Source of the DNA: Mesobacillus sp.
Lineage (GTDB): Bacteria; Bacillota; Bacilli; Bacillales; Cytobacillaceae
Assembly: GCF_047739415.1 (NCBI RefSeq)
Contig: NZ_JBIQOE010000218.1
Location: 15,254 to 79,253, forward strand
Reading direction: 5' to 3'
DNA: 64,000 nt
Numbering within the stretch: the stretch's first letter is position 1; each line of letters starts with the position of its first letter. The notes beneath the pieces are model-generated. The model had not been told where the DNA came from. It did no database searches and worked only from the letters and a program-made list of their open reading frames with translations. Both the position numbers and the translations under genes were made by a program. Shown in pieces: positions 314 through 53,876 of this stretch.

Positions 314-3058
314 TCAGTTTTCTTCAAAATCACTATAGAGCTTAGCGGCTGCCGCTTCTTTTGAGGAGGGTACTTTATCAACCTCTTTTAAAAGTTCATC
401 CATAAGTTGGAGTTCTTTTTCCCCTAATTCCGATTTACTGGCGCTCTCAGACTTGGCTTCAGGAGTATACTTGTTTTGTTGAAATATAGAGTCAAAACTG
501 AATACTTCTAACTCCTCCGTAATTTCGTCTGTCGTTCCACCTTCAGTAATGCCTAATGATTGTCCCTCTTTGTTATCTTCTAGTTCAGATCCTGCTGTTT
601 CGGAATTTTTTTGTGAGTCCATTTCTTGATGATCTAACAGTTCTGAAATTGCATCCTTCTCATCGTCATGTTCAATAGTGTCATATTCCTTTTCTTCTTT
701 ATAGGGAATAACAACAGGCTTCTTTATTTCTGGATAACCAACGAGCGGCTGGTCCCCCTGTGTTTCAACCTCTTGTTCAATTTCCTCTTCTACATCCTCA
801 ACTATTGATTCTTCCACTTCTTCTATACCTTCTTCTACCAGGAACGATTCAATGTGCATTTCACTTCGATTGGCCATCCAAAGCTTTGCTGCTTCCTCAT
901 CTACTTGGATAATCGCTTCTTTAAACTCAGATTTCGGCACGAAGTTGGCATCGATTTGCTTAACCGGTATTGGCCTGTTATTCGATACGATTTTTACTGC
1001 GCACTGAAATGGCTTCTGGTAAATGATATCAGCGGGTGATAAGATAGCTTCTTTGGTTTTTTGATAGCTGTTCCCCATTCTAAGCATCGGCTTCTCTTGC
1101 AACGGACTAACTGCTTGTTCATTGACACTTTCTTCAAACCGCTCTTTCTCCCCGAATATTTTCGAGAACAGTTGTGCATCAAAATCCGGAATATCACCGT
1201 ATACCATTTTATGACGAAGGGTACCTAGCAAAGTATGCATATAAGTTTCCCCATATTTGTCGGCAAGCTGCGTAACTGTCTGCGCGACTACTGTGACAAT
1301 CGCTTTATATTTCCTGGATTGTGCCGGGAATTCACGGAAGGGTTGATAAATATAGTCAGGGAATTCATCCACCAATATATGGTGAAAGTTCGATATATTA
1401 GGTGGCCTGCGGAATACAGCGTTCTGTAAACTCAATAGAATCAATTTCCCGAGGATGTTAGAAAGTCCTCCTAACTCCCCTTTTGCTGTATTGACGAGTA
1501 AAACGCCACCCATTTCGAGATGTTTATCAAAATCAAAATCAGACTTTCCGAATAGGACCCTCCGAATTAGCGGGCTGGCCCCGATATCATTCAGAACATT
1601 TCGCAACCCTTGAACATACTCAGCCTTGGCATCGTAATAAGCGTCTTCGCCGCGGTACTCTCCATGCGTAACCTTTTCGGGTACATTTGCTCCTCCTACT
1701 CTTGAGGTCTTTGGCAAAAGGTTCATATCGAACCACTCATCAATCTGTTTTACGATTGCCCAGTGATTTCGCTTATCTCGATCTTCAATTTCCTCAATGC
1801 TTTTCGGGAAAGTTTCCTTTAGTTTCAAATGCATCCTGCGGACAAGCTGCGGATTATTATACATATTAAGAAGCATATCGAAAGTAACATCCTGGTCAGG
1901 CTCATGAAGTTTCAGAAGATATATATAATGCTTGAGATGGTTCCTTTCACTTTGTTCAAAGAAGAAGTTACCACCATTACCGCCTTCTGCTAATCCTTGG
2001 ATGACCATCGCAAATGCTTCCGCAACCTTCTCGACCGGTCCCTGCATTGGATTAATGCTCGGAGTGTTTGGATTGGTAGGGTCTATATAAAAAACAGACT
2101 CCTCCGGAATACCATGCGCTTTGACAAGTTGAAATGCTTTTTGACACAAATCATTTGATGGCTCGATGACACTTATCCCGTTCAAATACATTCCCTTGAC
2201 TTCTTCGGAATGGTAATCCTCACGCTTATGAATTTTCGGGTAATCGTTTATAAATCTGCTCATCCAATGAAGGTCCTGATTAAGAATAGGTAAAACCAAA
2301 GCTGCTGTTTTACCAGTACCAATACTACCTACGATGATATTATTAAGGGTTCTATCGCGGCCTGGTTGAATGAGAAGTTCCTTTGTTTCTGATTCGGGAC
2401 CTAAAGCCACGTCTGGCCAATGTTCTTTCACTTCTAACTTAAACCATTTTTGAAGGAAAACATTTTTAAATTCAAACTCGCTGAAGGCTTCCTTCAAATC
2501 TGCGGAATACTGAGAATATTGTCCACTTAACCACAAAAGGAGAGCGGCTGAAACAACAGTTGGGATGAACATGATAGTGATAAGTAAGGTGTTTACATCC
2601 CCTACAGCTATTGCATGCCAAACATTCTCGATTTCCAGTTCATTAATTCTACCGCCCAGGTATGGTAGCAATACGTTATACACGGGAGCGGAAATCAACC
2701 AAAGATAATAAAATATAACTCCGACAAACATATTCCAGAACCATAAATTCCGAAACAGTCGGGTTTGAAACTTTTTAAATTTTGTACTGATCAACCACCC
2801 CACTATCAACCAAATGGATGCAAACATAAAACCCAAGAAAGTAGGTTGGGTAGAATCTCCGAACAGAACAAAACTCGGAATAGCCCCCATAAATTGCCCT
2901 GCCATCAAGAATAGATAATTAAAGCCCGCTTTTAAAGATAGAAACAAAGAAACGATAGCTGTGATTAACATCGAAACCATTGGAAGCTTCGGAACTACTT
3001 TATGTTTCATATAGGGTATCAATTTACTTTTCCAAAATTCCACGAGTTTATCTTCCAT
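314..3058 (-). CDS. Type IV coupling protein (VirD4/TraG/TraD family ATPase) with N-terminal polytopic membrane domain and long acidic C-terminal tail
   Basis: 914 aa. About 170 hydrophobic N-terminal residues forming several TM segments. Walker A GSIGTGKTAALVLP and Walker B HHILVDEFPDY. Asp/Glu-rich C-terminus. Overlaps the relaxase-candidate gene by 11 nt. Confidence 0.8.
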   Translation of the reverse strand: MEDKLVEFWKSKLIPYMKHKVVPKLPMVSMLITAIVSLFLSLKAGFNYLFLMAGQFMGAIPSFVLFGDSTQPTFLGFMFASIWLIVGWLISTKFKKFQTRLFRNLWFWNMFVGVIFYYLWLISAPVYNVLLPYLGGRINELEIENVWHAIAVGDVNTLLITIMFIPTVVSAALLLWLSGQYSQYSADLKEAFSEFEFKNVFLQKWFKLEVKEHWPDVALGPESETKELLIQPGRDRTLNNIIVGSIGTGKTAALVLPILNQDLHWMSRFINDYPKIHKREDYHSEEVKGMYLNGISVIEPSNDLCQKAFQLVKAHGIPEESVFYIDPTNPNTPSINPMQGPVEKVAEAFAMVIQGLAEGGNGGNFFFEQSERNHLKHYIYLLKLHEPDQDVTFDMLLNMYNNPQLVRRMHLKLKETFPKSIEEIEDRDKRNHWAIVKQIDEWFDMNLLPKTSRVGGANVPEKVTHGEYRGEDAYYDAKAEYVQGLRNVLNDIGASPLIRRVLFGKSDFDFDKHLEMGGVLLVNTAKGELGGLSNILGKLILLSLQNAVFRRPPNISNFHHILVDEFPDYIYQPFREFPAQSRKYKAIVTVVAQTVTQLADKYGETYMHTLLGTLRHKMVYGDIPDFDAQLFSKIFGEKERFEESVNEQAVSPLQEKPMLRMGNSYQKTKEAILSPADIIYQKPFQCAVKIVSNNRPIPVKQIDANFVPKSEFKEAIIQVDEEAAKLWMANRSEMHIESFLVEEGIEEVEESIVEDVEEEIEQEVETQGDQPLVGYPEIKKPVVIPYKEEKEYDTIEHDDEKDAISELLDHQEMDSQKNSETAGSELEDNKEGQSLGITEGGTTDEITEELEVFSFDSIFQQNKYTPEAKSESASKSELGEKELQLMDELLKEVDKVPSSKEAAAAKLYSDFEEN

Positions 3059-4337
3059 ACAACAACACTCCCTCTTTCTTAGATGTGTTAACTGTCTTAA
3101 AAAATAGAGGGTGAGTTTCTAAATCAATAGAAAGCTGCTCTTTACTGGTAAAATGAACATTCGGAAGCAATTTGCCCAACACATCGGAATGCAGTTCTTC
3201 ATTGCTTTGATAAATCGCTAAAATCTTATCCACTTTAATCTTGAACCTGTTTTCAGAAGATAGGAGGTTAAGATACTGTATTTGATCCAGACACTTTACA
3301 TCTCCCTCTTCCATGGTTTTAATTAGTACCGTTTCACACTTGTCTTTACCCACAAAGCGGAAATGGCCATCCGCATACAAGGATTCCTTCACTTCCGCTA
3401 GATAAAACTCGCTCGCGTCCATAGGCTCAATCATGTAATTGAAAGTGTCGTTAAGTTCCAAGAGCTTTGTAGCGGCTATGATTGAATTTGAACGCTGGCG
3501 TTCCAGAAGAGGCAATTCTCCCGTCATTATTTTATAAGCAATATTCCCAACTCTACTGATAGTTACAACATAAAAATTTAAATTTGAATGCACATGAGCG
3601 TTTGCCTGAATTATTAATTCCTTAAGGTTAGCCACCCTGCCACTGCGGTCTTTTGAATATTCGTTGTCATATAACAAAGCAGGATCATTCTCATCCAAAA
3701 CCACTAAGAGAACGTGATGGATTTCATTTGGACGTTGTTGAGCGTAATTTACGTATTTTATGACTTTCTCATTGATCTTAAGAAATTTCTCAGTGCCAGT
3801 ATCCAACTCTATATTCAGGAAACCGCAGGAATTAACAAGTACCCAATCAGGAACGACCGAAGGTTTAGAACCTTCGAAACCTGATTCATAATAAGGCATC
3901 TCCGACGGAGAAAACGAGGTGACTTCCCTGTTTTTCTTTTTTAACTCAATGAGAGTTAATAATACAGCGTCCCGGATGGCGAAGAAATGATCATAATTTC
4001 TCCTGCCCGATATATCTTCCAAAAGAACCTTGCTCGAAGGACTTATTAGCCCAGCCTTCTTCAGAACGACCACTCCTTCTGGCCCCACTCTGTAGAAAAC
4101 TTTTGCAGCTGGGGGTTTCGTATACCTTTTCGCCACAAGAACCTCAGCATCCCTCCATCTTCTCAGCTTCATTTCCAAGGAGCCTGGCTTTAAACCGTGC
4201 AGTCTTTCACAATAATACTTAATTTGATATAGCGATAAATATTTAAAGTCCCATATCAATTGTAAAAGTTCAAGATCTTGCTCAGAAAACCAAACAGCGT
4301 TCTTCTTACTAGTTTTCACTTGATGCTTTAGCGTCAT
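3048..4337 (-). CDS. Replication-relaxation (Replic_Relax) / MOB_L-like relaxase candidate
   Basis: 429 aa. The N-terminal pattern FSEQDLELLQLIWDFKYLSLYQIKYY is typical of the winged-helix start of Replic_Relax proteins. A PD-(D/E)xK-like stretch VVPDWVLV...NIELDTGTEK follows. Coupled to the T4CP gene and adjacent to an iteron/palindrome region. Confidence 0.5.
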   Translation of the reverse strand: MTLKHQVKTSKKNAVWFSEQDLELLQLIWDFKYLSLYQIKYYCERLHGLKPGSLEMKLRRWRDAEVLVAKRYTKPPAAKVFYRVGPEGVVVLKKAGLISPSSKVLLEDISGRRNYDHFFAIRDAVLLTLIELKKKNREVTSFSPSEMPYYESGFEGSKPSVVPDWVLVNSCGFLNIELDTGTEKFLKINEKVIKYVNYAQQRPNEIHHVLLVVLDENDPALLYDNEYSKDRSGRVANLKELIIQANAHVHSNLNFYVVTISRVGNIAYKIMTGELPLLERQRSNSIIAATKLLELNDTFNYMIEPMDASEFYLAEVKESLYADGHFRFVGKDKCETVLIKTMEEGDVKCLDQIQYLNLLSSENRFKIKVDKILAIYQSNEELHSDVLGKLLPNVHFTSKEQLSIDLETHPLFFKTVNTSKKEGVLLYGR

Positions 4338-4516
4338 TAACTTATCGCCTCCAAAACAAAAAGCACCCAGGACAAACAGAGCTATAGATTAAGCTCTAGC
4401 ATCCAGGGTGCTTCCCTCTGATATAAAGTTTCTTTCAAAGTATACCATTATTCAATGTTACCCAACAATATGGAATCAACAATAAACCCTGAATAAATAT
4501 AAACTTTATACAAAGA

Positions 4517-4768
4517 AAATTAGGGTACGGATTAGGGATGGAGATTAACTGAGGATAAAAAATACCTCTGTAAATTAGGGTACAAAATGAGTGCCTAGTT
4601 ACTAGTGGTTTTATGGGCATATCCCCCTCCGAACCGGGGGTGCGAAATAGGGTTGAAGTTACCATTCAAAATCAGCCTTTAGTCCTTGATATTATAGGGT
4701 TTATATTGTTCGGTTAATCACACAACCTATATCGAACAGGTTATCTTGTTCGGTAAAAGTTGTTCGGT
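4517..4768. repeat. Iteron cluster: AAATTAGGGTAC x2 plus degenerate TAGGG(T/A) copies; TTGTTCGGT x3 direct plus one partial inverted copy
   Basis: The exact 12-mer aaattagggtac sits at 4517-4528 and 4572-4583 (55-bp spacing). Related attaggga is at 4531-4538, aatagggtt at about 4646 and atagggttt at about 4693. The exact 9-mer ttgttcggt sits at 4707-4715, 4747-4755 and 4760-4768. An inverted cgaacagg is at 4733-4740. Confidence 0.7.
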
Positions 4769-5285
4769 ATACACCTGTTTTTAGCTTCTGCGGACTTATT
4801 GTAAAGAGCTTATTGGAAGAACAAGGACATGTATAGAAAAGTGAATAACAAATTAAGGCAGCTTCGCATAAAAGTACAATTAGACACTTCCTATCGTTGT
4901 TCAGAAAACATTGTTTACAAGGAATTTTACGTTAATTTAAAATCATTCACTTTCAAGATTCAATCTCGTAATTGAATGGCCATTTAAACGATTACCATAC
5001 ATAGCGGTAGTGATTTTTAGCCAGCGCATAAAGAAGAGATCTTATTCCCCTTACCAGTTCCGAAGGGTTAGGAACTATTAACGAAGGAGGCAATCACTTG
5101 GAATGAAAGTCCATTAAAAGAAGAACAAATGCATTGAGCCTTGTATACTGAAAGTGAACATTGGAGAATTATATAATTTTTCATGCAAACGAAATCGCGG
5201 ACCTCAATTGTGTATCTTAAAGGTTTGTAAGTTTAAAACGGAACCCTTGGGTCTTTAGAATGTCAACAATATCAAGGGTTCTTTT

Positions 5286-5307
5286 GTGGTCCGCAATTGC
5301 GGACCAC
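5286..5307. promoter_or_regulatory. Perfect 22-bp palindrome (candidate protein-binding site or oriT inverted repeat)
   Basis: gtggtccgcaattgcggaccac is self-complementary and is followed by a G8 run (5311-5318). A related half-site gcggacctcaattg lies at 5197-5210. Just upstream is the hairpin gaacccttg (5241-5249) / caagggttc (5273-5281) followed by tttt. Confidence 0.5.
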
Positions 5308-5392
5308 ATGGGGGGGGCGTAACAATGAAAACCTATTAAAAATTACACGTTTTTTATCTTTCTGATTGCTATAATTTGCTTATTTAACTATA

Positions 5393-5435
5393 ATGTACCT
5401 TAAAGGTACATATTTATGGGGCGTAAAGGTACATA
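5393..5435 (+). promoter_or_regulatory. Operator-like repeats over the tubR start region
   Basis: Inverted repeat atgtacc-N5-ggtacat (5393-5411). The direct repeat taaaggtaca occurs at 5401-5410 and 5424-5433. TATAAT-like boxes lie at about 5370 and about 5389. Confidence 0.45.
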
Positions 5436-5449
5436 AAGGTGGTGTGAAG

Positions 5450-5803
5450 ATGAATGACAAAACGTCCATAAAGGTTGGTTATAAAGACTTAGACTTGCTT
5501 GAATACGATGAAGACACTCTAAGGTTTTTACGTAAAAAACTAGATGATTTTACTATCGATGTATTCAGAAGAATTATTACGGAAAACAAGTTACATAGAG
5601 GGCTTATTAAAGCCAGGCTTGAGGATTTCCACAGCATGAGGAAAAAGTATGATGCATCATTTCTGATTTTAGAGGCACAAGGATTTATAGAAAAAAAGGA
5701 AGATGGTACAGCTACCCCGTATTTTGTTACAGTTCGGGGTAGGCAACTTGGACAGTTATTAAAAATGGAAAAGTTAGAGCGAGAGGAGCTTGTAAATGAT
5801 TAA
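5450..5803 (+). CDS. tubR: TubR-like winged-helix centromere-binding protein (assigned mainly by position)
   Basis: 117 aa from the ATG at 5450, with RBS AAAGGTGG upstream. The ORF-track start at 5393 lies inside the repeats. A wing-like segment is FIEKKEDGTATPYFVTVRGRQL. The gene overlaps the tubZ start by 8 nt. Confidence 0.55.
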   Translation: MNDKTSIKVGYKDLDLLEYDEDTLRFLRKKLDDFTIDVFRRIITENKLHRGLIKARLEDFHSMRKKYDASFLILEAQGFIEKKEDGTATPYFVTVRGRQLGQLLKMEKLEREELVND

Positions 5804-7154
5804 ACCATTTGCTGAAAATGAAAAACTAGGGGCAATTAAAGCTTTGCTATCCCCACATTTGTTGTCTGATGAAGTTAAAAAGGAAATGAATCGTTTTCCT
5901 TCTCAAGCCATTATTGGCTTAGGACAAGGTGGAGGACGTATTGCAGCAGAATTATCAAGGTTTGGTTTTCCTACATTTTTATTAAATTCCTCAAAGTCTG
6001 ATATGGAAGAACATAAAAATTTGATCCCTGAGAATAGACGGATTGTGACTTCAAGTAAGGACTACCCAGAGCTTGAAGGAACCGACAAAGATGCACGATT
6101 AGGCTTTGAAATCGCAAAGGAAAATAAAGATCTGTACGCTAGTGTTGCTTTAGATGACGCAATTCAAGATGCTGAGTTTGTTTGGGTGTGTGTAAGCCTT
6201 GGTGGCGGGACTGGTAATGGAGCACTAAAAGTCGCATTAACGTATCTTTCGAAGGTAAGGCAGAACAGAGCACTTCCGGGCGGAAAAATCCCTCTTGGTG
6301 TCATCTGTTCACTCCCATCTTCCGATGAAAAGGGGTCAGCTTTTAGAAAAAATGCACTTGCCGGTATCAGTGTCATCCAACAATTAATGAACGAAAGTAA
6401 AATGGGTACTGCCATTGTTATAGACAACGAGAAAATGAATGACTACTATGCTCACAGCCCTCTCAAGACCTACGGAGGAACAGAAATTGATGCGAAGTCA
6501 TATAGTAACATGGTAATTGCAAGTGCGTTGGCAGAAGTTTCTTCTCTTCCTTTACTTGATGGTCGATCCGTTTTTGATAAGACAGAATTGCTGACTACAC
6601 TATCAACTCCAGGATGGCTCTCCATATCGAAGCATAAAGATTTAAAAAATGATGAAGATATTGAATCTGTCATCGGTAATCTTTTTAATAATAACGAGGT
6701 TCTTGCGAATTACAAGGTCCAGAACGCCATAGCTGGAGCTGTCGCAGTATTGTATCCTACAACTAAAAATATATCACCTAAAATTGCTGATGATGTTTAT
6801 CGATATACTTCCAAGCTATTAAATACAAAAGTGAACCTATCAATCTCTAAAAATAGCAAGATGGAGAGCCTAGCTTTGTATGGTTTGGCGGTTTATTTGA
6901 CCCCTTCTATACGTATTCAGCAGTTGAAAGAAGAACTAAAACAATGGGAACAAATCGAAAAAGAACAAGAAGAAGCCAAAAAGCAAGCGGCTTCCAGTAT
7001 AGGTCTTGATGAATTTGAAGATTTCTTCTCTTCTCCTAATATGGCAAAGGGAAGAAAAAAATTAACTCTCACTGATTTGGATGAGGACTTCGAAGAAACT
7101 ATGAAGGAGTCAAAAAAAATTATAGCTGCGGATCTAAATGACATAGATTTTTAA
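5796..7154 (+). CDS. tubZ: TubZ-like tubulin/FtsZ-superfamily GTPase (type III plasmid partition)
   Basis: 452 aa. Tubulin signature motif SLGGGTGNG and T1-loop-like GLGQGGGRIA. Charged, flexible C-terminal tail. Preceded by a small DNA-binding gene. Confidence 0.8.
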   Translation: MIKPFAENEKLGAIKALLSPHLLSDEVKKEMNRFPSQAIIGLGQGGGRIAAELSRFGFPTFLLNSSKSDMEEHKNLIPENRRIVTSSKDYPELEGTDKDARLGFEIAKENKDLYASVALDDAIQDAEFVWVCVSLGGGTGNGALKVALTYLSKVRQNRALPGGKIPLGVICSLPSSDEKGSAFRKNALAGISVIQQLMNESKMGTAIVIDNEKMNDYYAHSPLKTYGGTEIDAKSYSNMVIASALAEVSSLPLLDGRSVFDKTELLTTLSTPGWLSISKHKDLKNDEDIESVIGNLFNNNEVLANYKVQNAIAGAVAVLYPTTKNISPKIADDVYRYTSKLLNTKVNLSISKNSKMESLALYGLAVYLTPSIRIQQLKEELKQWEQIEKEQEEAKKQAASSIGLDEFEDFFSSPNMAKGRKKLTLTDLDEDFEETMKESKKIIAADLNDIDF

Positions 7155-7157
7155 TAG

Positions 7158-7181
7158 GCCAAGCGTTGCTTGGCTTTTTTT
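7158..7181 (+). terminator. Intrinsic terminator after tubZ
   Basis: Stem gccaagc (7158-7164) / gcttggc (7168-7174) followed by T7. Confidence 0.75.
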
Positions 7182-7306
7182 GCGTTCAAGTACACTCAGA
7201 GAAAATCGTCACGCTCCTAAAAAGCGATTTATTGTTATGACAGGCGTTAAAGCACATCGGACGTTCCTGATCGCAATCGTCCGAGAATCATAATTATTTC
7301 AATCAA

Positions 7307-7360
7307 GTTGATTCAATTACATAAAAGAATGATTCAAACTATTTAATGAATCAATTACGT
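7307..7360. repeat. Short repeats (G/A)ATTCAA / ATCAATTAC in the tubZ-downstream intergenic region
   Basis: ttgattcaattac (7308-7320), gattcaaact (7331-7340) and gaatcaattac (7348-7358), followed by gaatggatgaaat. Confidence 0.4.
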
Positions 7361-7549
7361 AAATGAATGGATGAAATGCGATTTTGAAAAAATCAGCTAT
7401 ACATCGTTTGCTTGCCTTAACGCTAACGCTGCACATTGTCCGGATTGAGTTAACGCCTATAAAAACAAAGGATTTTTGTTGATTTGTCTTGATGAGAGAG
7501 GTATGCTTTATTAAAGATTGTAGATTTCTACAATAGGAGGTGAATTCGA

Positions 7550-8464
7550 GTGGAAGAAATCGATATTAGAGAATTGCTCGAAGACGATTTTAAAAATGAT
7601 CCAATTTATCGGTTAATCTTATTGAATGGTTTGCGAAATGACCTCTTTACTGAAGGGATACTTTCTTTACATCCCGATTTAACCTATAGCACCGTAGAAA
7701 CTGGAAGGATCATTGAACGATCGGATTCAACCATAAGGAATCATTTTCGTTCTGATTTGATTGAATACATAGCGCCAGAAAGGTTCGGGAAGTATTATCG
7801 ACTTAATTATCAAAGTGTTTTCCGCTTGCATATGATCTTTCTGTTAATGGAAAAGGCTTCAAAGTCTACGGTTGATCTCCTAGCTGAGCTAGGTATGCAA
7901 CCAGCGATTTCGATGGGGAATTTTAGAAGACAAAATTCTAATAAAGAAGGGGGGGCTAATACTGGACTAATACAACATGATTCCAAGAATGAGGAAAGGT
8001 TTTTAAGTCTTGAAAAATCTATAGCATTACAACGTTTGTTACTAAATATCTATGAGTATGAAAAAGAAATAGCCGATATCAATAGAAAAATCGACTTAAA
8101 CGAGTTTTCGATTAGACAAATTAAATCTGAAACTCATATGAAGTACTTGGAAGAGAAACAATCTCAACTTCTGACAAATTCTCTTAAGAAAACTATAAAA
8201 AAACAATCGTTTCTTGGCTTCTTCAAGAAGAATGAAGAGATCGATATTGAAGAAATCTCTGCTCAAATTGACTCAACATTAAAGGAAAAATATTTGTTAG
8301 AGTCTAACGAAAAGATAAAAGAATACGAGGAACAAAACTCTATTCTAGAAGAAAAAAAGAGGACGCTTTTAGAAACTATAGGCAACCGGAGGGATATGTT
8401 GTCGCAACTCCAATCAGAGAGCAAAAAAGCAACTTTTATCGATTCTAGCAAAATAAATAATTGA
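7550..8464 (+). CDS. MerR-like HTH plus long coiled-coil protein (possible TubY-like partition modulator)
   Basis: 304 aa. GTG start after AGGAGGTG. The N-terminal YSTVETGRIIERSDSTIRNHF...YYRLNYQSVFRL resembles a MerR-type HTH. The C-terminal half is Lys/Glu-rich heptad-like sequence. The gene lies immediately downstream of tubRZ. Confidence 0.4.
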   Translation: MEEIDIRELLEDDFKNDPIYRLILLNGLRNDLFTEGILSLHPDLTYSTVETGRIIERSDSTIRNHFRSDLIEYIAPERFGKYYRLNYQSVFRLHMIFLLMEKASKSTVDLLAELGMQPAISMGNFRRQNSNKEGGANTGLIQHDSKNEERFLSLEKSIALQRLLLNIYEYEKEIADINRKIDLNEFSIRQIKSETHMKYLEEKQSQLLTNSLKKTIKKQSFLGFFKKNEEIDIEEISAQIDSTLKEKYLLESNEKIKEYEEQNSILEEKKRTLLETIGNRRDMLSQLQSESKKATFIDSSKINN

Positions 8465-8519
8465 ATATTACGAACATATGTTTTATAATATAAGAAAACA
8501 TATTTAGGGGTTGATCTAC

Positions 8520-8633
8520 ATGTTCCTTTTGATGAAAGAAAAAACTGAACACGCTTTAAATAACATTATTGTAGGTCTTGCAACAATGGCCCTTCTAACT
8601 GCAATTGTAATTACAATTTTAGATCGCATATAA
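8520..8633 (+). CDS. 37-aa single-TM peptide (candidate type I toxin or small membrane protein)
   Basis: MFLLMKEKTEHALNNIIVGLATMALLTAIVITILDRI. A hairpin plus T-run terminator at about 8634-8668 follows directly. An inverted repeat acatatgtttt/aaaacatat spans a TATAAT box upstream. Confidence 0.4.
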   Translation: MFLLMKEKTEHALNNIIVGLATMALLTAIVITILDRI

Positions 8634-8853
8634 AAATCCTTTCCAATACGGGGAGGATTTTTTATAATTCCTTAGCTGCTATTTTTTGCTTTTTTTTTAA
8701 AAACTTAGGGTATGAATGTACCCTAAGTTTCGGAAGCCAATTATATAGGCAGCTAAGGGAAATTTTAAAACTCTTCCTCATATGATTCAACTTTTTTTGA
8801 AAATACGTTAAAATAATGGTTAATAGTCTTGTGAATAAAGGAGGGGATACACG

Positions 8854-12052: not shown

Positions 12053-12319
12053 CTAGTTACTCAATTCAAAATCATTCATCTCTACTTCGCCTTTTAACCA
12101 TTTAAGGCATAAATCCTCTGTAATGAACTCTTCAACCCAACACTCCCCGGATGAATTGTCAATACCAATGTAATGGCCGTTTTCCTCAACCATGAATAAC
12201 CCTATAGGTTTATAATTATTCATAATATCAGAAGCTTCTCTTTTATCAATCTTTTTTATTTTATTTCTGTTCTCTTTAATATCTGTGGTTTCTGGATTTC
12301 TCTCCGCAATGTTATTCAT
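12053..12319 (-). CDS. Small hypothetical protein, last gene of the E1/E2/JAB array
   Basis: 88 aa. RBS-like AGAGGGA upstream. Lies 38 nt downstream of the E1-like gene on the same strand. Confidence 0.45.
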   Translation of the reverse strand: MNNIAERNPETTDIKENRNKIKKIDKREASDIMNNYKPIGLFMVEENGHYIGIDNSSGECWVEEFITEDLCLKWLKGEVEMNDFELSN

Positions 12320-12357: not shown

Positions 12358-13257
12358 CTAAGATGCAATCGTTAATTTCTCTGATGACTGCACATCAGTC
12401 GAACGCATATAACCTTTCTTCGCATGAAAAAAAGTGATGTGTGAGTTAATATTATAATCCTCAATAAGGATTGTAAGTATGTTTGCAATTGACAAGGCTG
12501 CTAATTTGTTCACTATTAATCTTTGAGGTTCAGAAGCAGTTAGTTCGGTACAAGAAAGCTCACTCGGCCGAATATCGTCTTGGTCCTGAAGAACATCAGG
12601 GAACATTTCAGCCATTGGTGCTTGTTTGAATAAATTCATCCTTACACCAGTGACTACCTGACCGCTCCATCCACTTTCACGGTAATCCCGTAACTCTTCT
12701 TCGGTCCATCTCTCTTTTGGCCTCGTTCTCCAATCATCAGGTACCTTTGTTGACTCATTTCCTGCATCGATATATACTACAGTCTTCATTTTCTTAAACA
12801 GTTCATGAATGACTCGGCGAGTATAGTTATTGTCCACACAGCCCACAATTATCGGCAAAAACAATTTATTACATTGTCGCTCTCCCTCATCATACATGGA
12901 CATGTATTCCATTGAAAAAAGAGCCCGCAAGTCTTTCTCTGATTCGATATAAGAATCGCTAAAAGAGCCAATGTCAATTCCATAAGCAGCCGAATAGCGG
13001 CTTGCCAAAACATCAGCCTTTTTCAAACCTACCTCCTGTGGCAGAAATAACTGATTTCCTAAATTTTTTTCTTCAATAACGTCAGGGTCAGCAATTACAT
13101 ACGCCGCTTTTGTCTTCGTTGTCCCTAATAGTTGAGCGATATGTTGAACAACATAACCACCCGTGCCTCCAGCTCCGACCTGCACAATAAAGGGGAAAAC
13201 ACCTTGATAGTCGTACCAATTATCTTTAGCTGCTTTTAGAATGTTAATTCCGTTCAT
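12358..13257 (-). CDS. ThiF/MoeB/E1-like adenylyltransferase (ubiquitin-activating-enzyme-like)
   Basis: 299 aa. Rossmann motif VQVGAGGTGGYVV, ThiF-type box DPDVIEEKNLGNQLF and the downstream VGCVDNNYTRRVI. Candidate catalytic Cys in LSCTELT. The start overlaps the JAB gene stop (ATGA). Confidence 0.75.
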   Translation of the reverse strand: MNGINILKAAKDNWYDYQGVFPFIVQVGAGGTGGYVVQHIAQLLGTTKTKAAYVIADPDVIEEKNLGNQLFLPQEVGLKKADVLASRYSAAYGIDIGSFSDSYIESEKDLRALFSMEYMSMYDEGERQCNKLFLPIIVGCVDNNYTRRVIHELFKKMKTVVYIDAGNESTKVPDDWRTRPKERWTEEELRDYRESGWSGQVVTGVRMNLFKQAPMAEMFPDVLQDQDDIRPSELSCTELTASEPQRLIVNKLAALSIANILTILIEDYNINSHITFFHAKKGYMRSTDVQSSEKLTIAS

Positions 13258-14195
13258 GCTACCACAACCTCAACTTTTGACATATCAAAGGCTGGAAGCG
13301 ATTTAAACGGATCCTCAAACACCAGATGAAAAGGCACTGGTTTATGGCCTTCATCCTCAGAAATAAAGCAACGAATTGTTATATCCGGCAATGGCTTTTG
13401 CAAACCTCCTACGATAGCATAAATCATCCCAGGAAGCCGTTCTGATTCGTTATCTTGAGTAGAGGGGAGGGGAGCCATACAATGGTGAGAATGAATCTCT
13501 AAAACCTTTATGGCATCTTCAACTCTCTCTGCAATATCGTATGAAGATTCGCTAACTTCACACCAATATTTATGAACCCGCTGTGCCGGAACATCTAAAA
13601 AGAAATGCCCTGTTGCACTTTTGTAAATGTCAGCATGGATTTCTAGAGATTGTTCAGCGTACAAACGGGCCAAGCTTATAAATTGGCTTAATACATTGAA
13701 CGGAACGGGAAAAGAAACGCCTTCTTGCGAAGACGTTTCTCTACAATTCCCTTTCTTTTTTGCTTTCATGACTGGAATGACAATATTCTTGTCCTTCAAA
13801 TAAACCATCTCCGTCATGTCCTTTACAAGTTCAGGAAAATCCTTTTCCATTCTTTTGCGAAGTAATTCTCCATCCAATGGACGTCTTTCTGTTTCTCCGT
13901 CTTTCTTTTTGACTAGCAAGCCTTCAGCTAATTCCTCTGAAGTAAAATAGGAAATGATTTCGATGGATTCACCAAAGTAACGAATCACTGTATCCTGGTT
14001 TACTTCAAAAAGATCTTTTTCCGTCCCCTTATTTTCGGCGCTAGTAGCAGCCTTCTTATTTTCCACCTGTTTACGCAATTCTTCGGCTTTTCGAGCCCTT
14101 TCTTCTTCCTCCTGCTTTTTTTGCTCAGCGTATTCATCAACAATCCCAAACATTGAAAAAATATCTTCCTGCCCTGCGATTACATTCTTAGTCAT
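13254..14195 (-). CDS. JAB/MPN+ (JAMM) metalloprotease with N-terminal coiled-coil and a Ubl-like segment
   Basis: 313 aa. Exact JAMM motif H235-S-H237-x7-S245-x2-D248 (EIHSHHCMAPLPSTQD). Candidate upstream Glu at WCEVSES. Residues about 62-149 (VIRYFGESIEI...DFPELVKDMTEMVYLKDKNIVIPVMKAKKKG) look like a beta-grasp ending in Gly. Confidence 0.75.
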   Translation of the reverse strand: MTKNVIAGQEDIFSMFGIVDEYAEQKKQEEEERARKAEELRKQVENKKAATSAENKGTEKDLFEVNQDTVIRYFGESIEIISYFTSEELAEGLLVKKKDGETERRPLDGELLRKRMEKDFPELVKDMTEMVYLKDKNIVIPVMKAKKKGNCRETSSQEGVSFPVPFNVLSQFISLARLYAEQSLEIHADIYKSATGHFFLDVPAQRVHKYWCEVSESSYDIAERVEDAIKVLEIHSHHCMAPLPSTQDNESERLPGMIYAIVGGLQKPLPDITIRCFISEDEGHKPVPFHLVFEDPFKSLPAFDMSKVEVVVA

Positions 14196-14212: not shown

Positions 14213-14932
14213 CTAATTATTTTTTTTGAATAGATCTCCAAACTTATTGTTACTTGGCATAAGCCAGTCATCATCAAAAGGTTGTTCTTTAATTCGCTCG
14301 ATTAAAGCTCGGAATCTGGATATCCCCAAGGTTGTACGCACACCGTGATCTTCGTTAAACGGAGAGGCAACAAACCACCTAAAGGCACGCTCTAGTTCAA
14401 CGATATCCTTAATTTCTAACCTTTGATTCAACCCCCAGCATACGATCCCATTGCTCTTACCGACATTAGGATATGGGAATACAAACAAAGGGGTATCATC
14501 AGTAACTGGACACCCGTTGTCCTGAACTGCATAGATTCTCATTTCAGATATCTTTAATCCCCTATTTCCAAATGGTACAAGAAGATATTGTAAAACCATT
14601 CGAGGAAACCCAATGGTAAAAAAATTTTCTTCTTCTCCATATCGGATTTCCCACATCTTCTTTTCTAATAGCATTGTAACGCGCTGCTTACTACCAGATT
14701 CATTTGAAGAGTAGCGAATGCATCTTGCAGGAAGGGTAGGAGTGCTCTTTTCTTCGTTGCGTTTTGCATCTGCATCGTAAGCATTTTCTGGAGCCTGCTG
14801 TAACGCTTGGATAATATCTTCAACCCGATAATAAAATGGACCTTTCCGCACACCATTGTCACCAATTTGAAAAGCTTCTATTGGGAATTCAGACGATTTT
14901 GGAACATCTGACAGTTCAAATTGCCACCGCAT
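14213..14932 (-). CDS. Prokaryotic E2/UBC-like protein
   Basis: Start taken at the ATG at 14932, which follows AAGGAG at 9-nt spacing; the ORF track begins 20 codons earlier. The E2-like active-site context is FPYPNVGKSNGIVCWG (HPN-like YPN, then Gly-x-x-Cys). Confidence 0.6.
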   Translation of the reverse strand: MRWQFELSDVPKSSEFPIEAFQIGDNGVRKGPFYYRVEDIIQALQQAPENAYDADAKRNEEKSTPTLPARCIRYSSNESGSKQRVTMLLEKKMWEIRYGEEENFFTIGFPRMVLQYLLVPFGNRGLKISEMRIYAVQDNGCPVTDDTPLFVFPYPNVGKSNGIVCWGLNQRLEIKDIVELERAFRWFVASPFNEDHGVRTTLGISRFRALIERIKEQPFDDDWLMPSNNKFGDLFKKNN

Positions 14933-15437
14933 TTGATTCTTGCTCCTTTCTAGTCGGTAATATGTCCAGAAGGACATACAGAACATCAACAAGGTCTATA
15001 GGTCCGTCATCTTCATACCATGTCAAAATTACTCCATTTTCAATTGAAGTAATCTCACCATAGCCACAATAAAAATCCGCGCCTCCACCGATGGTTCCTG
15101 AGCGAATTTTTGTATGGTCAATACGATCATCCAGGATAACAATAATTCCCGTGCCTTCCAGGTCATCATGATGGTGAGAAAGGCCGGCACGTTCGCACCA
15201 ATATGTTTTATCAGGAATCTCTTCTTCACCGCTATGAGGAAACCAATAATCTACGATAGTAAAGACGGAATTCACTGTATGCATGAAAATGTCCCAGTCA
15301 TATTCCTGTCCAAAATCATAATTAACCACATAGTGGGGGAACTTTTTTAAATCCACACCATAGTCAAATGCTAGTTTCATTAGCATAAGATTTTGAACTG
15401 TCCCCTTAAGACTATAGTAATCATCATGTGACTCCAT
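14916..15437 (-). CDS. Acidic hypothetical protein (173 aa) in the Ubl-system array
   Basis: RBS GGAGGGA. Lies 10 nt after the upstream gene and overlaps the E2-like start by 17 nt. No family recognised. Confidence 0.5.
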   Translation of the reverse strand: MESHDDYYSLKGTVQNLMLMKLAFDYGVDLKKFPHYVVNYDFGQEYDWDIFMHTVNSVFTIVDYWFPHSGEEEIPDKTYWCERAGLSHHHDDLEGTGIIVILDDRIDHTKIRSGTIGGGADFYCGYGEITSIENGVILTWYEDDGPIDLVDVLYVLLDILPTRKEQESNAVAI

Positions 15438-15447
15438 AATTTCCCTC

Positions 15448-15786
15448 CTACAGAAATAAGAAAGGGGAAGGTGGCCTCTGTTTCGGCAACTTCCCCAGAC
15501 TGTATATTTTATTAGATAGAGCCATTATCCGCGTATATGGATGATTAGGATCAATGCAAATACGTCCCTCTGTGTCTTCATCAGAAAGAACAGAATCTAA
15601 TCCTTCATACACTTCGATTAGATCCTCGAATTCAAACTTTGAGAAGTTTATATCCTCCGTACATAACTGGTTCTGAATCACCATAAGCACATAGTTTTGT
15701 CCGATTTGCTCTTCAACACTTCCTTGTCCCTTATCGTTAATAAGTTCGGAGAAGGTGGAGAAACTAAATCCATTTCTCATTGTCAT
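15448..15786 (-). CDS. Hypothetical protein (112 aa) in the Ubl-system array
   Basis: RBS GGAGG. Lies 35 nt downstream of dnaN. No family recognised. Confidence 0.5.
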   Translation of the reverse strand: MTMRNGFSFSTFSELINDKGQGSVEEQIGQNYVLMVIQNQLCTEDINFSKFEFEDLIEVYEGLDSVLSDEDTEGRICIDPNHPYTRIMALSNKIYSLGKLPKQRPPSPFLFL

Positions 15787-15821: not shown

Positions 15822-16949
15822 TTATGTTGTTCTTACCGGCAACACAAGCTGAAGCTCTTCGTAGGTTGATGAACATGGAGTAACCAGAAAAGGCCTCATG
15901 TTACCCTGGTATTTAAAGTTGATATATTCATCATCTATCGCTTTTAGAGCGTCAATCATGTATTTGGAAGAGAAAGAAATGGTAAAATCGTCTTCACCGC
16001 TCAATTCCTCGTAATCAACCACTTCTACACCTTTACCAATTTGCGATTGGTGAGTGGAGATTGTGGCTGCTCCATTAACGTGAAGTTTTACCACTCCGCC
16101 TTTTCCATTGTCTGCTCCATTGGCCAATCCGCTTATACGATCAAGACTCTCCAAAAATTCTTTGCGACTTATTTTCATTTCCGCTCTGAACTCTGTAGGG
16201 ATAAGACGTGAAGTATCAGGATAATTGCCTTCTAACAAGCGGCTATAAAAGAATAACGCTCCATTTTTAAACACCACTTGATTATCAGATTCACAATATA
16301 GGCTAACATCCTCTTGTAAATCGAAGGTTTTGGCCAGTTTATCTAATGACTTTGCTGGAATAACCAATCTTAAGTCTTTCTTTCCTTCCACCTTTGACTT
16401 AACTTGGCCCAAACGGTGAGAATCCGTACAGACCAGCTGCATACAATCTTCCGTGATAGATAGATTGACGCCTGTTAGGATAGGCCGAATTTCCGAATCT
16501 GATGCAGCGAAAGATGTTTTCTTTACAAAAGAATTGAAATCTGTACCTTTCAATGTGAAGGTAGGTTTTTCAATATCAAAAGTAGGTAGTTTCGGATATT
16601 CTTCCGGATCAAAAGTGTTAAGATTGAATTCTGATTTTTTACCATATTTAATGGTCAAATTAAAGTCGATTAGTTTTAATTCCAAATTCTTCTTCAGCTT
16701 TTTCGAGATATCCGATACTTGCTTCGGTAGAACAGTCTTGCCTGGAACAAACACATCGACATTTTCACCATCAACCGGAATATGATAACGGAAAGATTCC
16801 GTGCTGTCAGAACCAACCAAGATGATCTCTTGTTCATTAACTTCCATAAAGACGCCTTGAAGAATGGGAATACTGTGCTTAGCATTTACCACTTTCTCCA
16901 CCTTTTTTAGTGCTTCAGCAAAAAGTTGACTATCGATTTTAAAATGCAT
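15822..16949 (-). CDS. dnaN: DNA polymerase III beta sliding clamp, extra-chromosomal copy
   Basis: 375 aa. DnaN-like N-terminus MHFKIDSQLFAEALKKVEKVV...IPILQGVFMEV. Typical length and three-domain layout, with C-terminus MRPFLVTP...LVLPVR. Confidence 0.85.
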   Translation of the reverse strand: MHFKIDSQLFAEALKKVEKVVNAKHSIPILQGVFMEVNEQEIILVGSDSTESFRYHIPVDGENVDVFVPGKTVLPKQVSDISKKLKKNLELKLIDFNLTIKYGKKSEFNLNTFDPEEYPKLPTFDIEKPTFTLKGTDFNSFVKKTSFAASDSEIRPILTGVNLSITEDCMQLVCTDSHRLGQVKSKVEGKKDLRLVIPAKSLDKLAKTFDLQEDVSLYCESDNQVVFKNGALFFYSRLLEGNYPDTSRLIPTEFRAEMKISRKEFLESLDRISGLANGADNGKGGVVKLHVNGAATISTHQSQIGKGVEVVDYEELSGEDDFTISFSSKYMIDALKAIDDEYINFKYQGNMRPFLVTPCSSTYEELQLVLPVRTT

Positions 16950-17026: not shown

Positions 17027-18025
17027 TTAAGCTATTTGTTTGATATGCCCTTGTTTTAAGTCCTCTTTAACAAATTGAACGATCTCTTTTACCTGTTCCA
17101 AAGTGACATGGGTAAAGCAGGAAAAAAGATTTTCAACTCTGATTTTGGGATTTAAAATCTGCACATAATTTAAGACATCATCCATTGAAATTTTATAATG
17201 ATTAGCAACCACGGTTAAATCATTGACTGGCCGCAACACATTGTAATACTGCCTAAACTCAGCTTCAGATGCTTTTTCAAAGACCTCAGTAATAGTTGTT
17301 TGTTGGATACTCGGATTGATTCGTTTGAACAAAGGCATGATCCAATTAGAATGTTCAGTAAGCCCGGTATTTTTTAGATATTCCGTAATCACTTTAACAG
17401 CTGTACCGCGATTAAATTCGGATTTTTCATCTGACATTTGCGGTTTTTGCTGTTGTTGACTAGATGTTTGATTATTAGGGTTTCTCCTTTGTTCGTTTCC
17501 TTCGGAAAAAGAATGCTTTTTTTCATTTTCAGGTAACGCCCATATCGGTAACTTGGGAGGAAGCCAATAACCATAAACATTATTCTTTTTATCGTTTATT
17601 CGTATTGCTCCATCCCGTTTGTCGTCAAAAACTTCCACAAACATGGATTCAAGCTTATACAGATATCGTCCAATACCCCACTGTACAGCTGCTCTTTTCA
17701 TGGCGCCTGAAAGTCCGCCTTTAAGCGATTCAATCTCTGTCTGTTCAGCACCGTCCGATTTTTCAACCCATTCACCATCTATGAAGCAAGAGATAGTGCA
17801 TAAAATTCCATCTTTGAAATCCTTGTAGCTGTTCTTCCAGCCGGCAGGACCGAAGACTTCATCAAGGCGGTTTTGAATTGCCCTGTTTGTTACATAAGCC
17901 AATACCATTGCCCACTTCTTTCCATTTTTAATACCTGAATGACTGACACGCCATTCGATATCCTTAGATGGAAATGGAGCCTGCAGCTTACTGATAACTT
18001 CTTCCATACTACAATCTTGTTTCAT
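17027..18025 (-). CDS. Rad52/Rad22-family single-strand annealing protein with Q-rich linker and extra C-terminal domain
   Basis: 332 aa. DIEWRV...GLSGAMKRAAVQWGIGRYLY matches the Rad52-like SSAP signature. A TSSQQQQKPQ linker is followed by about 120 aa of unknown domain. Confidence 0.7.
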   Translation of the reverse strand: MKQDCSMEEVISKLQAPFPSKDIEWRVSHSGIKNGKKWAMVLAYVTNRAIQNRLDEVFGPAGWKNSYKDFKDGILCTISCFIDGEWVEKSDGAEQTEIESLKGGLSGAMKRAAVQWGIGRYLYKLESMFVEVFDDKRDGAIRINDKKNNVYGYWLPPKLPIWALPENEKKHSFSEGNEQRRNPNNQTSSQQQQKPQMSDEKSEFNRGTAVKVITEYLKNTGLTEHSNWIMPLFKRINPSIQQTTITEVFEKASEAEFRQYYNVLRPVNDLTVVANHYKISMDDVLNYVQILNPKIRVENLFSCFTHVTLEQVKEIVQFVKEDLKQGHIKQIA

Positions 18026-36239: not shown

Positions 36240-36254
36240 TAGAAGGGTGGGCTT

Positions 36255-39992: not shown

Positions 39993-39997
39993 TATAG

Positions 39998-53834: not shown

Positions 53835-53876
53835 TTTTTCAACTCCATTCAATACAAGATGGTTTTTATCAGATGC

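Follow-up and report, generated by a model that had tools for sequence, protein, structure and literature searches.

We examined a 64,000-nucleotide (nt) stretch of DNA from Mesobacillus sp. (positions 15,254 to 79,253 of contig NZ_JBIQOE010000218.1, forward strand; hereafter, the window), and in particular a minus-strand gene for a 313-amino-acid (aa) protein that ends in a predicted JAB/JAMM peptidase domain. We propose that this protein is a precursor in which a ubiquitin-like protein (Ubl), a modifier of the 6d or PRTRC-like class of Iyer (2006), is joined in one chain to the peptidase of its own system, and that Gly149 is the end of the mature modifier. We consider this likely. The domain limits, the family membership, the conservation of the catalytic residues, and the split and fused forms of the operon were all computed. 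Bacterial operons with an E1, an E2, a JAB peptidase, and a Ubl have been known from sequence since 2006, and this system is of a known kind (6d/PRTRC-like); what is new is the fusion of modifier and peptidase, which is not annotated in the databases searched.

Domain layout of the protein

The open reading frame (ORF) and its parts are as follows (pLDDT is the predicted local distance difference test score):

13254-14195, minus strand: the 313-aa ORF, with an N-terminal tail, a Lys/Glu-rich helix, a Prok_Ub-like modifier domain, a linker, and a JAB/JAMM peptidase (from the ORF list, 91 full-length Bacillales homologues, and AlphaFold2)
14157-14171, minus strand: QEDIF, residues 9-13, in the low-confidence N-terminal tail; resembles the motif that binds the beta sliding clamp (from motif enrichment; putative function)
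14049-14144, minus strand: Lys/Glu-rich helix, possibly a coiled coil, residues 18-49 (AlphaFold2, pLDDT 80-85)
13749-14012, minus strand: putative modifier domain of the Prok_Ub/PRTRC_C family, residues 62-149, ending in K148-G149 (conservation, profile searches, and HHalign)
13746-13751, minus strand: predicted scissile bond, Gly149-Asn150 (from the limit of conservation and the ends of stand-alone homologues)
13710-13748, minus strand: variable linker, residues 150-162, probably flexible (low pLDDT; neither sequence nor length is conserved)
13257-13709, minus strand: JAB/JAMM (MPN+) metallopeptidase domain, residues 163-313 (Pfam Prok-JAB, PRTRC_A, the invariant motif, and Foldseek)
13641-13643 and 13452-13493, minus strand: JAMM residues, E185 at the first position and H235-x-H237-x7-S245-xx-D248 at the second (invariant in the alignment)

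About 160 residues lie upstream of the MPN core. Residues 62-149 translate as LFEVNQDTVIRYFGESIEIISYFTSEELAEGLLVKKKDGETERRPLDGELLRKRMEKDFPELVKDMTEMVYLKDKNIVIPVMKAKKKG, and the next residue is N150; the same segment reads LFEVNQDTVIRYFGESIEIISYF...DFPELVKDMTEMVYLKDKNIVIPVMKAKKKG, with the C-terminal end ...KAKKKG149. A full-length AlphaFold2 model, built on the alignment of 91 sequences (mean pLDDT 84.9), has a tail (residues 1-10, pLDDT 48), the helix at residues 18-49, a compact domain (residues 70-143, pLDDT about 90), and then the MPN domain. The elements of the compact domain come in the order strand-strand-(short helix)-strand-strand-helix-strand-strand, and the segment after Gly149 (about residues 150-160) is poorly modelled (pLDDT 38). 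The helix at residues 18-49 differs in both length and sequence between homologues. Within the modifier domain there is a Bacillales-specific insert of about 25 residues (about residues 83-107), which in the window reads YFTSEELAEGLLVKKKDGETE. The first-pass annotation had described a long region before the MPN domain with a Lys/Glu helix and had numbered H235, H237, and G149, and the ORF translation, the model, and the alignment bear out all of this.

By its motif and its predicted MPN fold, the C-terminal half is a JAB/JAMM (MPN+) peptidase domain. E185, H235, H237, S245, and D248 are invariant in a family alignment of 36 sequences. The profile matches are below their cut-offs: Pfam Prok-JAB scores 18.7 bits against a cut-off of 25 (E = 0.0017), and PRTRC_A (TIGR03735) matches ORF residues 163-278 with its positions 74-184 (E = 5e-4). 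The best Foldseek match of the full-length model is the peptidase of a bacterial Ubl-deubiquitinase complex (8tyx_B, E = 1.8e-6), followed by Rpn11, AMSH, and the archaeal PfJAMM1 (overall range, E = 1e-6 to 1e-4). All of the Foldseek matches of this model are confined to the JAB domain.

Split, fused, and peptidase-less forms of the operon

Related operons were found at 39 genome loci (Bacillaceae, Planococcaceae, Brevibacillus, and Paenibacillus), with the order Erf/Rad52-type recombinase - DnaN - two small genes - E2 - Ubl-JAB - E1. We scored a profile of the modifier domain only (A4, 90 positions) against 1.84 billion representative proteins, and 167 relatives passed a threshold of E <= 1e-3. 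We parsed the 142 new ones by what follows the conserved glycine:

83 of 142: a JAMM motif downstream of the glycine (fused, as in the window)
11 of 142: the protein ends exactly at the glycine
17 of 142: the protein ends 1-4 residues past the glycine (with tails such as GR, CC, CR, AKQ, or AGR)
2 of 142: the protein ends 5-15 residues past the glycine
29 of 142: apparently partial

We looked up the contigs of four stand-alone forms. In the first (L007/L008), whose protein is carried by 19 contigs, the order is hyp141 - hyp150 - E2 (Prok-E2_D) - Ubl104 (...GGKKG) - JAB227 - ThiF. The DNA of L007 reads ...GGG AAG AAA GGA TGA, so that the stop codon of the Ubl gene overlaps the ATG of the JAB gene, and the protein after Ubl104 matches Prok-JAB. 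In the second (L009, a Logan SRR29904084 contig, genes at 4118-6357), the order is hyp111 - hyp186 - E2 - hyp54 - Ubl134 (...GAKKG-stop) - ThiF, and the 10.4 kb examined, which reach about 5 kb to either side of the Ubl gene, contain no JAB gene. As the tag of L009 would already be made in its mature form, a peptidase would be dispensable, which fits with the peptidase being needed mainly for maturation. The third (L006, a JGI 3300077723 contig, 6001-8847) has dnaN - hyp97 - [IS605] - hyp173 - Ubl141 (...QARKKG-stop) - Fic - JAB222 - ThiF; tblastn found no E2 homologue in this locus. In the fourth (L010/L011), the order is dnaN - hyp179 - a 217-aa protein - Ubl93 (...AARAG, plus CC) - and a next gene that is interrupted by the end of the contig.

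That one operon occurs with the domain as a separate protein, fused to the peptidase, or without any JAB gene implies that the E2/JAB/E1 system uses it as a functional unit in its own right, whose functional end would be the equivalent of Gly149. As judged from these sequences, this comparison is the strongest evidence that the domain is a modifier.

Two of these loci have other features. L009 has SNF2 helicase and RecA-like genes near the operon. In L006, the gene between the stand-alone Ubl and JAB encodes a 252-aa Fic-domain protein, and the element inserted upstream is of the IS605 family.

Conservation around Gly149

The 91 full-length homologues are all from Bacillales. K148 and G149 are invariant in all 91, and A145 and K146 are nearly so. 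In contrast, the residue after Gly149 differs among homologues (N, S, C, A, I, T, and others), and the 10-15 residues past the glycine vary in both sequence and length until conservation returns at I164-P165. Bacillus cereus plasmid pCER270 encodes a 321-aa homologue of the same architecture in which ...LTVGAKG is followed directly by ASIVE...HSHH. An abrupt stop of conservation at a glycine, and then a flexible linker, is the look of a maturation site. The first-pass annotation had also proposed Gly149 as the functional C-terminus, and this agrees with the stop of conservation and with the stand-alone relatives, which stop at the equivalent glycine or 1-4 residues later. If Gly149 is the functional C-terminus, then the modifier must be cut from the JAB domain before it can be used.

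The proposed modifier domain belongs with PRTRC protein C

In a canonical PRTRC locus (L002, on a Cupriavidus plasmid), the order is ParB - E - C - F - B(E2) - A(JAB) - ThiF, and protein C ends in ...REFSYNGMTLPDVSPQFSPDQVRDVYAAQYPELTTAAVDGPEVKDGVARFTFVRAAGAKG plus AACVNLTS. We collected 100 homologues of PRTRC_C, all of which are Pfam Prok_Ub. They have in common ...QYPELTTA...FVRAAG[AT]KG, and then 0-13 residues: several stop at the glycine and others have 3-13 additional residues. So the pattern that the first-pass annotation had given for the C-terminus of PRTRC_C (yPEL...KG) is real.

The link from the window to PRTRC_C goes through relatives that do not have the insert. Many relatives of the window domain are of this kind, and a typical one reads ...RFVSYAGHRIEIPRRNMKLEEVRQMIEEQFPELSKERTEMLYDEELGLVIPVLKGHRKG. 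One of them (P0091), from a contig with 69% G+C and the same gene order as the window, has a segment that matches both Prok_Ub (E = 0.0048) and TIGR03738 (E = 0.0056). Among 70 diverse members of the family, 8 match Prok_Ub at E < 0.01 (best, 1.8e-4), and all of the relatives are below the 25-bit cut-off. When a profile of the insert-free subfamily (A6, which does not include the window sequence) was compared to a profile of PRTRC_C (A7), HHalign gave a probability of 93% (E = 3.4e-7, 35 columns), and A6 in turn scores the window ORF at 59.6 bits (E = 1.3e-17). These two results uphold the earlier suggestion that the segment is of the same family as PRTRC_C. Also, the PEL motif and the terminal glycine are 29 residues apart in one of the two families (insert-free relatives and PRTRC_C) and 30 in the other. 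By family, and by its predicted function, the modifier domain is a Ubl.

No second Ubl was found near the gene, as had been noticed before: a search of all six frames of the window gave no other small protein that is Prok_Ub-like or related to the domain. We considered the neighbouring 112-aa, 173-aa, and 88-aa proteins as separate Ubls and rejected them, as none of them gives a Ubl or Prok_Ub signal or ends in glycine. Scans of the window domain itself against Pfam, NCBIfam, and PDB sequences gave nothing meaningful; calbindin, uS19, and NDUFA2 were rejected as relatives because they are chance matches to the helix.

Evidence against the proposal, and the fold of the domain

Several observations weigh against a pro-modifier of this class. 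First, the window domain does not match Pfam PF14454 (Prok_Ub) or TIGR03738, even at E <= 10, and a direct HHalign comparison of A4 to A7 gives a probability of only 24%, so that the link to PRTRC_C is transitive, via the insert-free relatives. We nevertheless consider the chain of profiles from the window domain to those relatives to PRTRC_C to be sound, though the direct comparison is weak. Second, the window's JAB, E2, and E1 are all far below the cut-offs of the PRTRC equivalog models (19.6 bits against 101.8 for A, 28 against 131.5 for B, and 82 against 144.8 for ThiF), and the neighbouring ORFs scanned do not make up the full TIGRFAM PRTRC set. Third, in the literature searched, cleavage, adenylation, or conjugation has not been reported for any member of the class. 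Fourth, neither the predicted structure of the domain nor its sequence leads to a solved structure. An AlphaFold2 model of the isolated domain (residues 58-149; pLDDT 86.6, predicted template modelling (TM) score 0.72) has the order bb-a-bb-a-bb (b, strand; a, helix), and Foldseek found no significant match to it in the PDB (the best was ribosomal eL22, with E = 0.09 and TM 0.28) and nothing better than E = 0.14 in BFVD. By sequence, profiles A4, A6, and A7 had no match among solved structures, which means that this holds for Prok_Ub/PRTRC_C itself.

Because of the missing Foldseek neighbour, the label "ubiquitin-like fold" rests on homology to Prok_Ub. The first-pass annotation had suggested a ubiquitin-like beta-grasp domain. 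Of this, the part about a modifier that goes with an E2/JAB/E1 set fits the comparative evidence, and the part about the beta-grasp fold was not confirmed, as the predicted structure has no significant Foldseek match. The alternative is a modifier that is like ubiquitin in function and not in structure, as Pup is. The model is confident and yet no Foldseek match exceeds TM 0.34, and there is no link by sequence to any solved Ubl, which is what this alternative would lead us to expect. On the other hand, Foldseek is, in our own assessment, weak on small domains with inserts, and Prok_Ub, the Ubl of class 6d, was assigned to the beta-grasp by threading, which recovered ThiS (Iyer 2006). The predicted order of elements is also compatible with a bb-a-bb beta-grasp core plus the Bacillales insert of about 25 residues: without the insert, the relatives would have strand-strand-helix-strand-strand-tail, which is the minimal beta-grasp core. 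Finally, mean-field direct-coupling analysis of 180 aligned core sequences (effective number, about 110) gave weak hints (pairs 11-58 and 6-54) that strand 1 lies parallel beside the last strand, which were not significant and were dominated by gap and subfamily artefacts. Overall, we lean towards a beta-grasp fold for the modifier domain, and we see a non-beta-grasp modifier as the less likely case, with perhaps one chance in a few.

Alternatives to a released modifier

Another possibility is that the N-terminal domain is never released and serves the peptidase permanently as an accessory domain that binds a partner or substrate, as JAB-N might, and in which Lys-Gly is structural. An alpha+beta JAB-N domain does precede JAB in 6d operons (Iyer 2006), the window domain has no recognizable beta-grasp neighbour, and its cleavage is our prediction. 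But a permanent domain would not be expected to occur as separate proteins that end at exactly that glycine, one of them in an operon without a JAB gene, nor would conservation be expected to stop abruptly at the glycine ahead of a variable and poorly modelled linker. Furthermore, the domain is related to PRTRC_C and not to the N-terminus of PRTRC_A, whose match covers residues 163-278 only. The Arg/Trp signature of JAB-N is not apparent in our alignments, which were not searched specifically for it. We consider a permanent domain to be improbable.

Alternatively, the released domain could be no protein tag but a sulfur carrier of the ThiS/MoaD type, whose glycine the ThiF-like E1 would adenylate and convert to a thiocarboxylate. 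A single C-terminal glycine and an E1 of the ThiF family would suit a sulfur carrier, and JAMM-processed MoaD-MoaE fusions occur in Deinococcus (PMC8832034). However, an E2-fold protein is always present and keeps its cysteine in 39 of 39 loci; neither the 9 ORFs of the cluster nor 10 further large ORFs that we scanned matched a rhodanese, a cysteine desulfurase, ThiG/MoaE, or other sulfur metabolism; and the setting is a block of plasmid replication and recombination genes. We consider a sulfur carrier to be improbable as well.

Last, the fusion could be an artefact of a sequencing or assembly frameshift that joined two genes, as split gene pairs with overlapping stop and start codons do exist, but 91 close homologues, a further 83 representative clusters, and 39 genome loci spread over many genera all keep the fused frame open, which refutes this.

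Proposed pathway

If the protein is a pro-modifier, then the JAB domain, acting in cis or supplied by another molecule, would cut after Gly149 to give residues 1-149 (17.3 kDa) with a free C-terminal Lys-Gly. The ThiF-type E1 encoded next door would adenylate Gly149 and probably take the tag onto its Cys236. The E2, of the Prok-E2_D type, would take the tag onto its Cys165 and hand it over to lysines of target proteins. The freed JAB domain (18.5 kDa) may also strip the tag from targets. We infer every one of these enzymatic steps (the cleavage, the thioester relay, and the conjugation to protein), as well as the identity of the targets, from sequence. As the operon sits in the replication and recombination block (Erf, DnaN) of a conjugative megaplasmid, the targets are probably proteins of plasmid or host DNA transactions or proteins of invading elements.

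Neighbouring genes

The genes around the fusion are as follows:

14213-14932, minus strand: E2-like protein, Prok-E2_D family and weakly PRTRC_B-like, 239 aa from the ATG at 14932 (Prok-E2_D E = 6.1e-9, 36.3 bits against a cut-off of 25)
12358-13257, minus strand: E1-like adenylyltransferase, ThiF family and weakly PRTRC_ThiF-like, 299 aa (ThiF 33.5 bits against a cut-off of 28.1)
14916-15437, minus strand: 173-aa protein, no family match (positional equivalents in related loci)
15448-15786, minus strand: 112-aa acidic protein, no family match (positional equivalents in related loci)
15822-16949, minus strand: plasmid-borne dnaN paralogue (beta sliding clamp), directly upstream (tblastn; annotated as dnaN at the syntenic place in L001 and L003)
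17027-18025, minus strand: Erf/Rad52-type single-strand annealing protein, at the head of the array (phrog_1097, Erf-like, E = 2.6e-76; syntenic in most loci)
12053-12319, minus strand: 88-aa ORF downstream of the E1 gene (phage families of no known function; phrog_37721, E = 6e-15)

The E1 has GxGxxG at residues 28-34 and Cys236, which is conserved in 44 of 44 loci, and its start overlaps the stop of the JAB gene. PRTRC_ThiF matches it with E = 3.9e-23, below the cut-off. In the E2, the candidate catalytic residue is Cys165 (nt 14438-14440), conserved in 39 of 39 related loci. Besides the E2 with its histidine absolutely conserved after the cysteine, class 6d is described as having a JAB-N domain with a conserved Arg and Trp and an alpha-helical protein with conserved charged residues (Iyer 2006). 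The position that aligns with His196 of the window's E2 is histidine in only 6 of the 39 loci, so a 6d-type histidine after the cysteine is not conserved there.

Upstream of E2, a gene of about 140-215 aa occupies the slot of the 173-aa protein in six related loci (L001, L003, L004, L006, L007, and L009). A gene of about 100-140 aa occupies the slot of the 112-aa protein in related elements, and tblastn reaches only its close relatives. Both slots are filled by genes of comparable size in the distant relatives L003, L004, L007, and L009. These two proteins are candidates for targets, for adaptors, or for the alpha-helical protein of class 6d. At the Erf slot of L004, which is of an actinobacterial type with high G+C, there is an ORF that we read by eye as RecT-like. 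The 88-aa ORF has no tblastn counterpart in any related locus and so is probably outside the system.

A motif like those that bind the sliding clamp

In the otherwise unconserved extreme N-terminus of the fusion, a short motif is kept: QEDIF in the window, and QTDIF, QLDLF, QLNIF, QMSLF, or QASLF elsewhere. The full motif (Q-x-[DSN]-[ILMFV]-F) is present in the first 45 residues of 105 of 233 family members, as compared to 4 of 807 background ORFs (an enrichment of about 90-fold), and a short form of it is present there in 203 of the 233 members and 123 of the 807 background ORFs. The consensus for binding the bacterial clamp is QL[S/D]LF or QxxLF; the residues at positions 1, 4, and 5 carry the most weight, and position 3 favours Asp or Ser (bioRxiv 10.1101/2025.03.10.642433). 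QEDIF, which lies in the low-pLDDT tail, fits this consensus by sequence.

By tblastn, 33 of the 39 loci have a dnaN gene on the strand of the Ubl-JAB gene, 2.7-5.5 kb upstream of it. The clamp-like motif and this near-constant linkage to a plasmid dnaN suggest, as a hypothesis, that the tag is recruited to the clamp. We can imagine a bacterial counterpart of the ubiquitylation or SUMOylation of PCNA, in which a Ubl system is recruited to the beta clamp, or tags the clamp or proteins bound to it, and so controls plasmid replication, recombination, or establishment after conjugation; this is speculative, and we would not bet on it. A search of the literature for clamp binding linked to a Ubl found no study of this system. 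If the link to dnaN and the clamp-like motif are real, then this would point to a first class of targets for a bacterial Ubl outside of phage defence.

A different motif is seen in the window's E2, whose C-terminus (14213-14260, minus strand) reads ...SNNKFGDLFKKNN. The GDLF in it is loosely like a C-terminal clamp-binding motif, and it is absent from the two other E2 sequences that we read (pCER270 and PRTRC_B).

Plasmid context and distribution

By its gene content, the window is a segment of a conjugative megaplasmid; besides a Tn3 transposase, it encodes the following:

314-4337, minus strand: type IV coupling protein and relaxase
5796-7154, plus strand: TubZ/FtsZ-like GTPase
28680-30221, plus strand: GerA spore germination receptor gene
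34086-42112, plus strand: VirB4-like ATPase, a 1245-aa protein with no family match, and an M23/SLT cell-wall hydrolase
51126-53852, minus strand: MmeI-type restriction-modification enzyme

We rejected a phage origin because tblastn against phage genomes gave no match and because of this conjugative plasmid content. PLSDB has no near-identical plasmid, and it has homologues of the E1 on 307 plasmids, 163 of them from Bacillus, including B. cereus pCER270. The Ubl-JAB layout is common on such plasmids. Where the homologues of the fusion are given a name, it is hypothetical protein, TolA, or Mov34/MPN/PAD-1, and these names make the systems look as if they had no Ubl. Among the defence models of PADLOC-DB 2.0, there was no match for the E2, the JAB protein, or their neighbours, and the E1 was only weakly and generically similar to the E1-E2 of CBASS (E = 1e-5 and weaker).

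Comparison to known systems

The closest likeness is to PRTRC and class 6d. The core order of E2 (Prok-E2_D/PRTRC_B), JAB (PRTRC_A), and ThiF-type E1 is the same as B-A-ThiF of PRTRC, the modifier is of the same family with the same ...yPEL...xKG end, and both are carried by plasmids. The core of class 6d as set out by Iyer (2006) is present here: a Ubl with a C-terminal glycine (in this case fused), JAB, an E1 without a rhodanese domain, and an E2 with a conserved cysteine. Holders of 6d include B. cereus and B. thuringiensis (Iyer 2006). The differences are that the modifier is fused before JAB here, instead of being a separate gene of about 72 aa; that it has an N-terminal tail, a helix, and an internal insert; and that the operon is linked to dnaN and an Erf-type recombinase. 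The models for ParB and for PRTRC D, E, and F matched none of the neighbouring ORFs that we scanned.

Type I Bub systems likewise make their Ubl at the N-terminus of a fusion with an enzyme of the same pathway. In Bub, the Ubl-E2 fusion BubAB is cut directly after a conserved glycine by the JAB domain of BubCD (PMC11601596), which is the cut that we predict here. However, Bub joins the Ubl to the E2 and the peptidase to the E1, whereas here the partner of the Ubl is the peptidase itself. Also, Bub uses Ser/Tyr oxyester intermediates, in contrast to the conserved cysteines of the E1 and E2 here, and the Ubl families are not detectably related.

The Bil system (BilABCD) has the same four activities (Ubl, E2, JAB, and E1), and the best structural match of our JAB domain is a BilC-type peptidase with its Ubl (8tyx_B). 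In some Bil and Bub Ubls, too, a coiled coil at the N-terminus precedes a single beta-grasp domain (PMC11601603). In contrast to Bil, the E1 here is of the short, single-domain ThiF type, the Ubl is fused to JAB, the context is replication and recombination and not a defence island, and there is no match by sequence to known defence models beyond the generic similarity of the E1.

Other precursors in which a dedicated peptidase exposes the C-terminal glycine of a modifier include the MoaD-MoaE fusion of Deinococcus (cut by DR-JAMM), TAPI-JAB, and the precursors of eukaryotic ubiquitin. In TAPI-JAB, the Ubl of the phage lambda type, from phage tail assembly, is fused to JAB in one E. coli prophage (Iyer 2006). 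None of these joins a Ubl-peptidase fusion, an E1, and a cysteine E2 in one operon. We found no mention of a Ubl-JAB fusion of the class studied here in Iyer (2006) or in the other literature searched, and no functional study of the PRTRC/6d branch in that literature.

It appears, then, that a large, plasmid-borne, Gram-positive branch of the 6d/PRTRC-like class hides its modifier inside the peptidase gene. To our knowledge, biochemistry has been demonstrated only for the CBASS, Bil, and Bub branches. Gly149 is a clear and testable maturation site, as defined by the variants that occur naturally (split, fused, and peptidase-less), which also provide a ready set of constructs.

Variant architectures of the fused gene

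In a plasmid of Planococcus lenghuensis (L001, NZ_CP019641, 9875-11686), a reverse transcriptase/maturase of a group II intron lies between the E2 and JAB genes. The JAB protein that is annotated there (271 aa, P0078) does not have the N-terminal part, which suggests that the intron interrupts the 5' end of the Ubl-JAB gene.

A subfamily of longer proteins (P0199-P0205, P0211, P0226, P0229, and P0232, 550-600 aa) has about 300 additional residues between an N-terminal motif of the DLF type and the Ubl-JAB module, and the JAB domain is their sole Pfam match. Finally, P0091 and 3 other proteins have a peripheral-subunit (E3_binding) domain in the N-terminal region.

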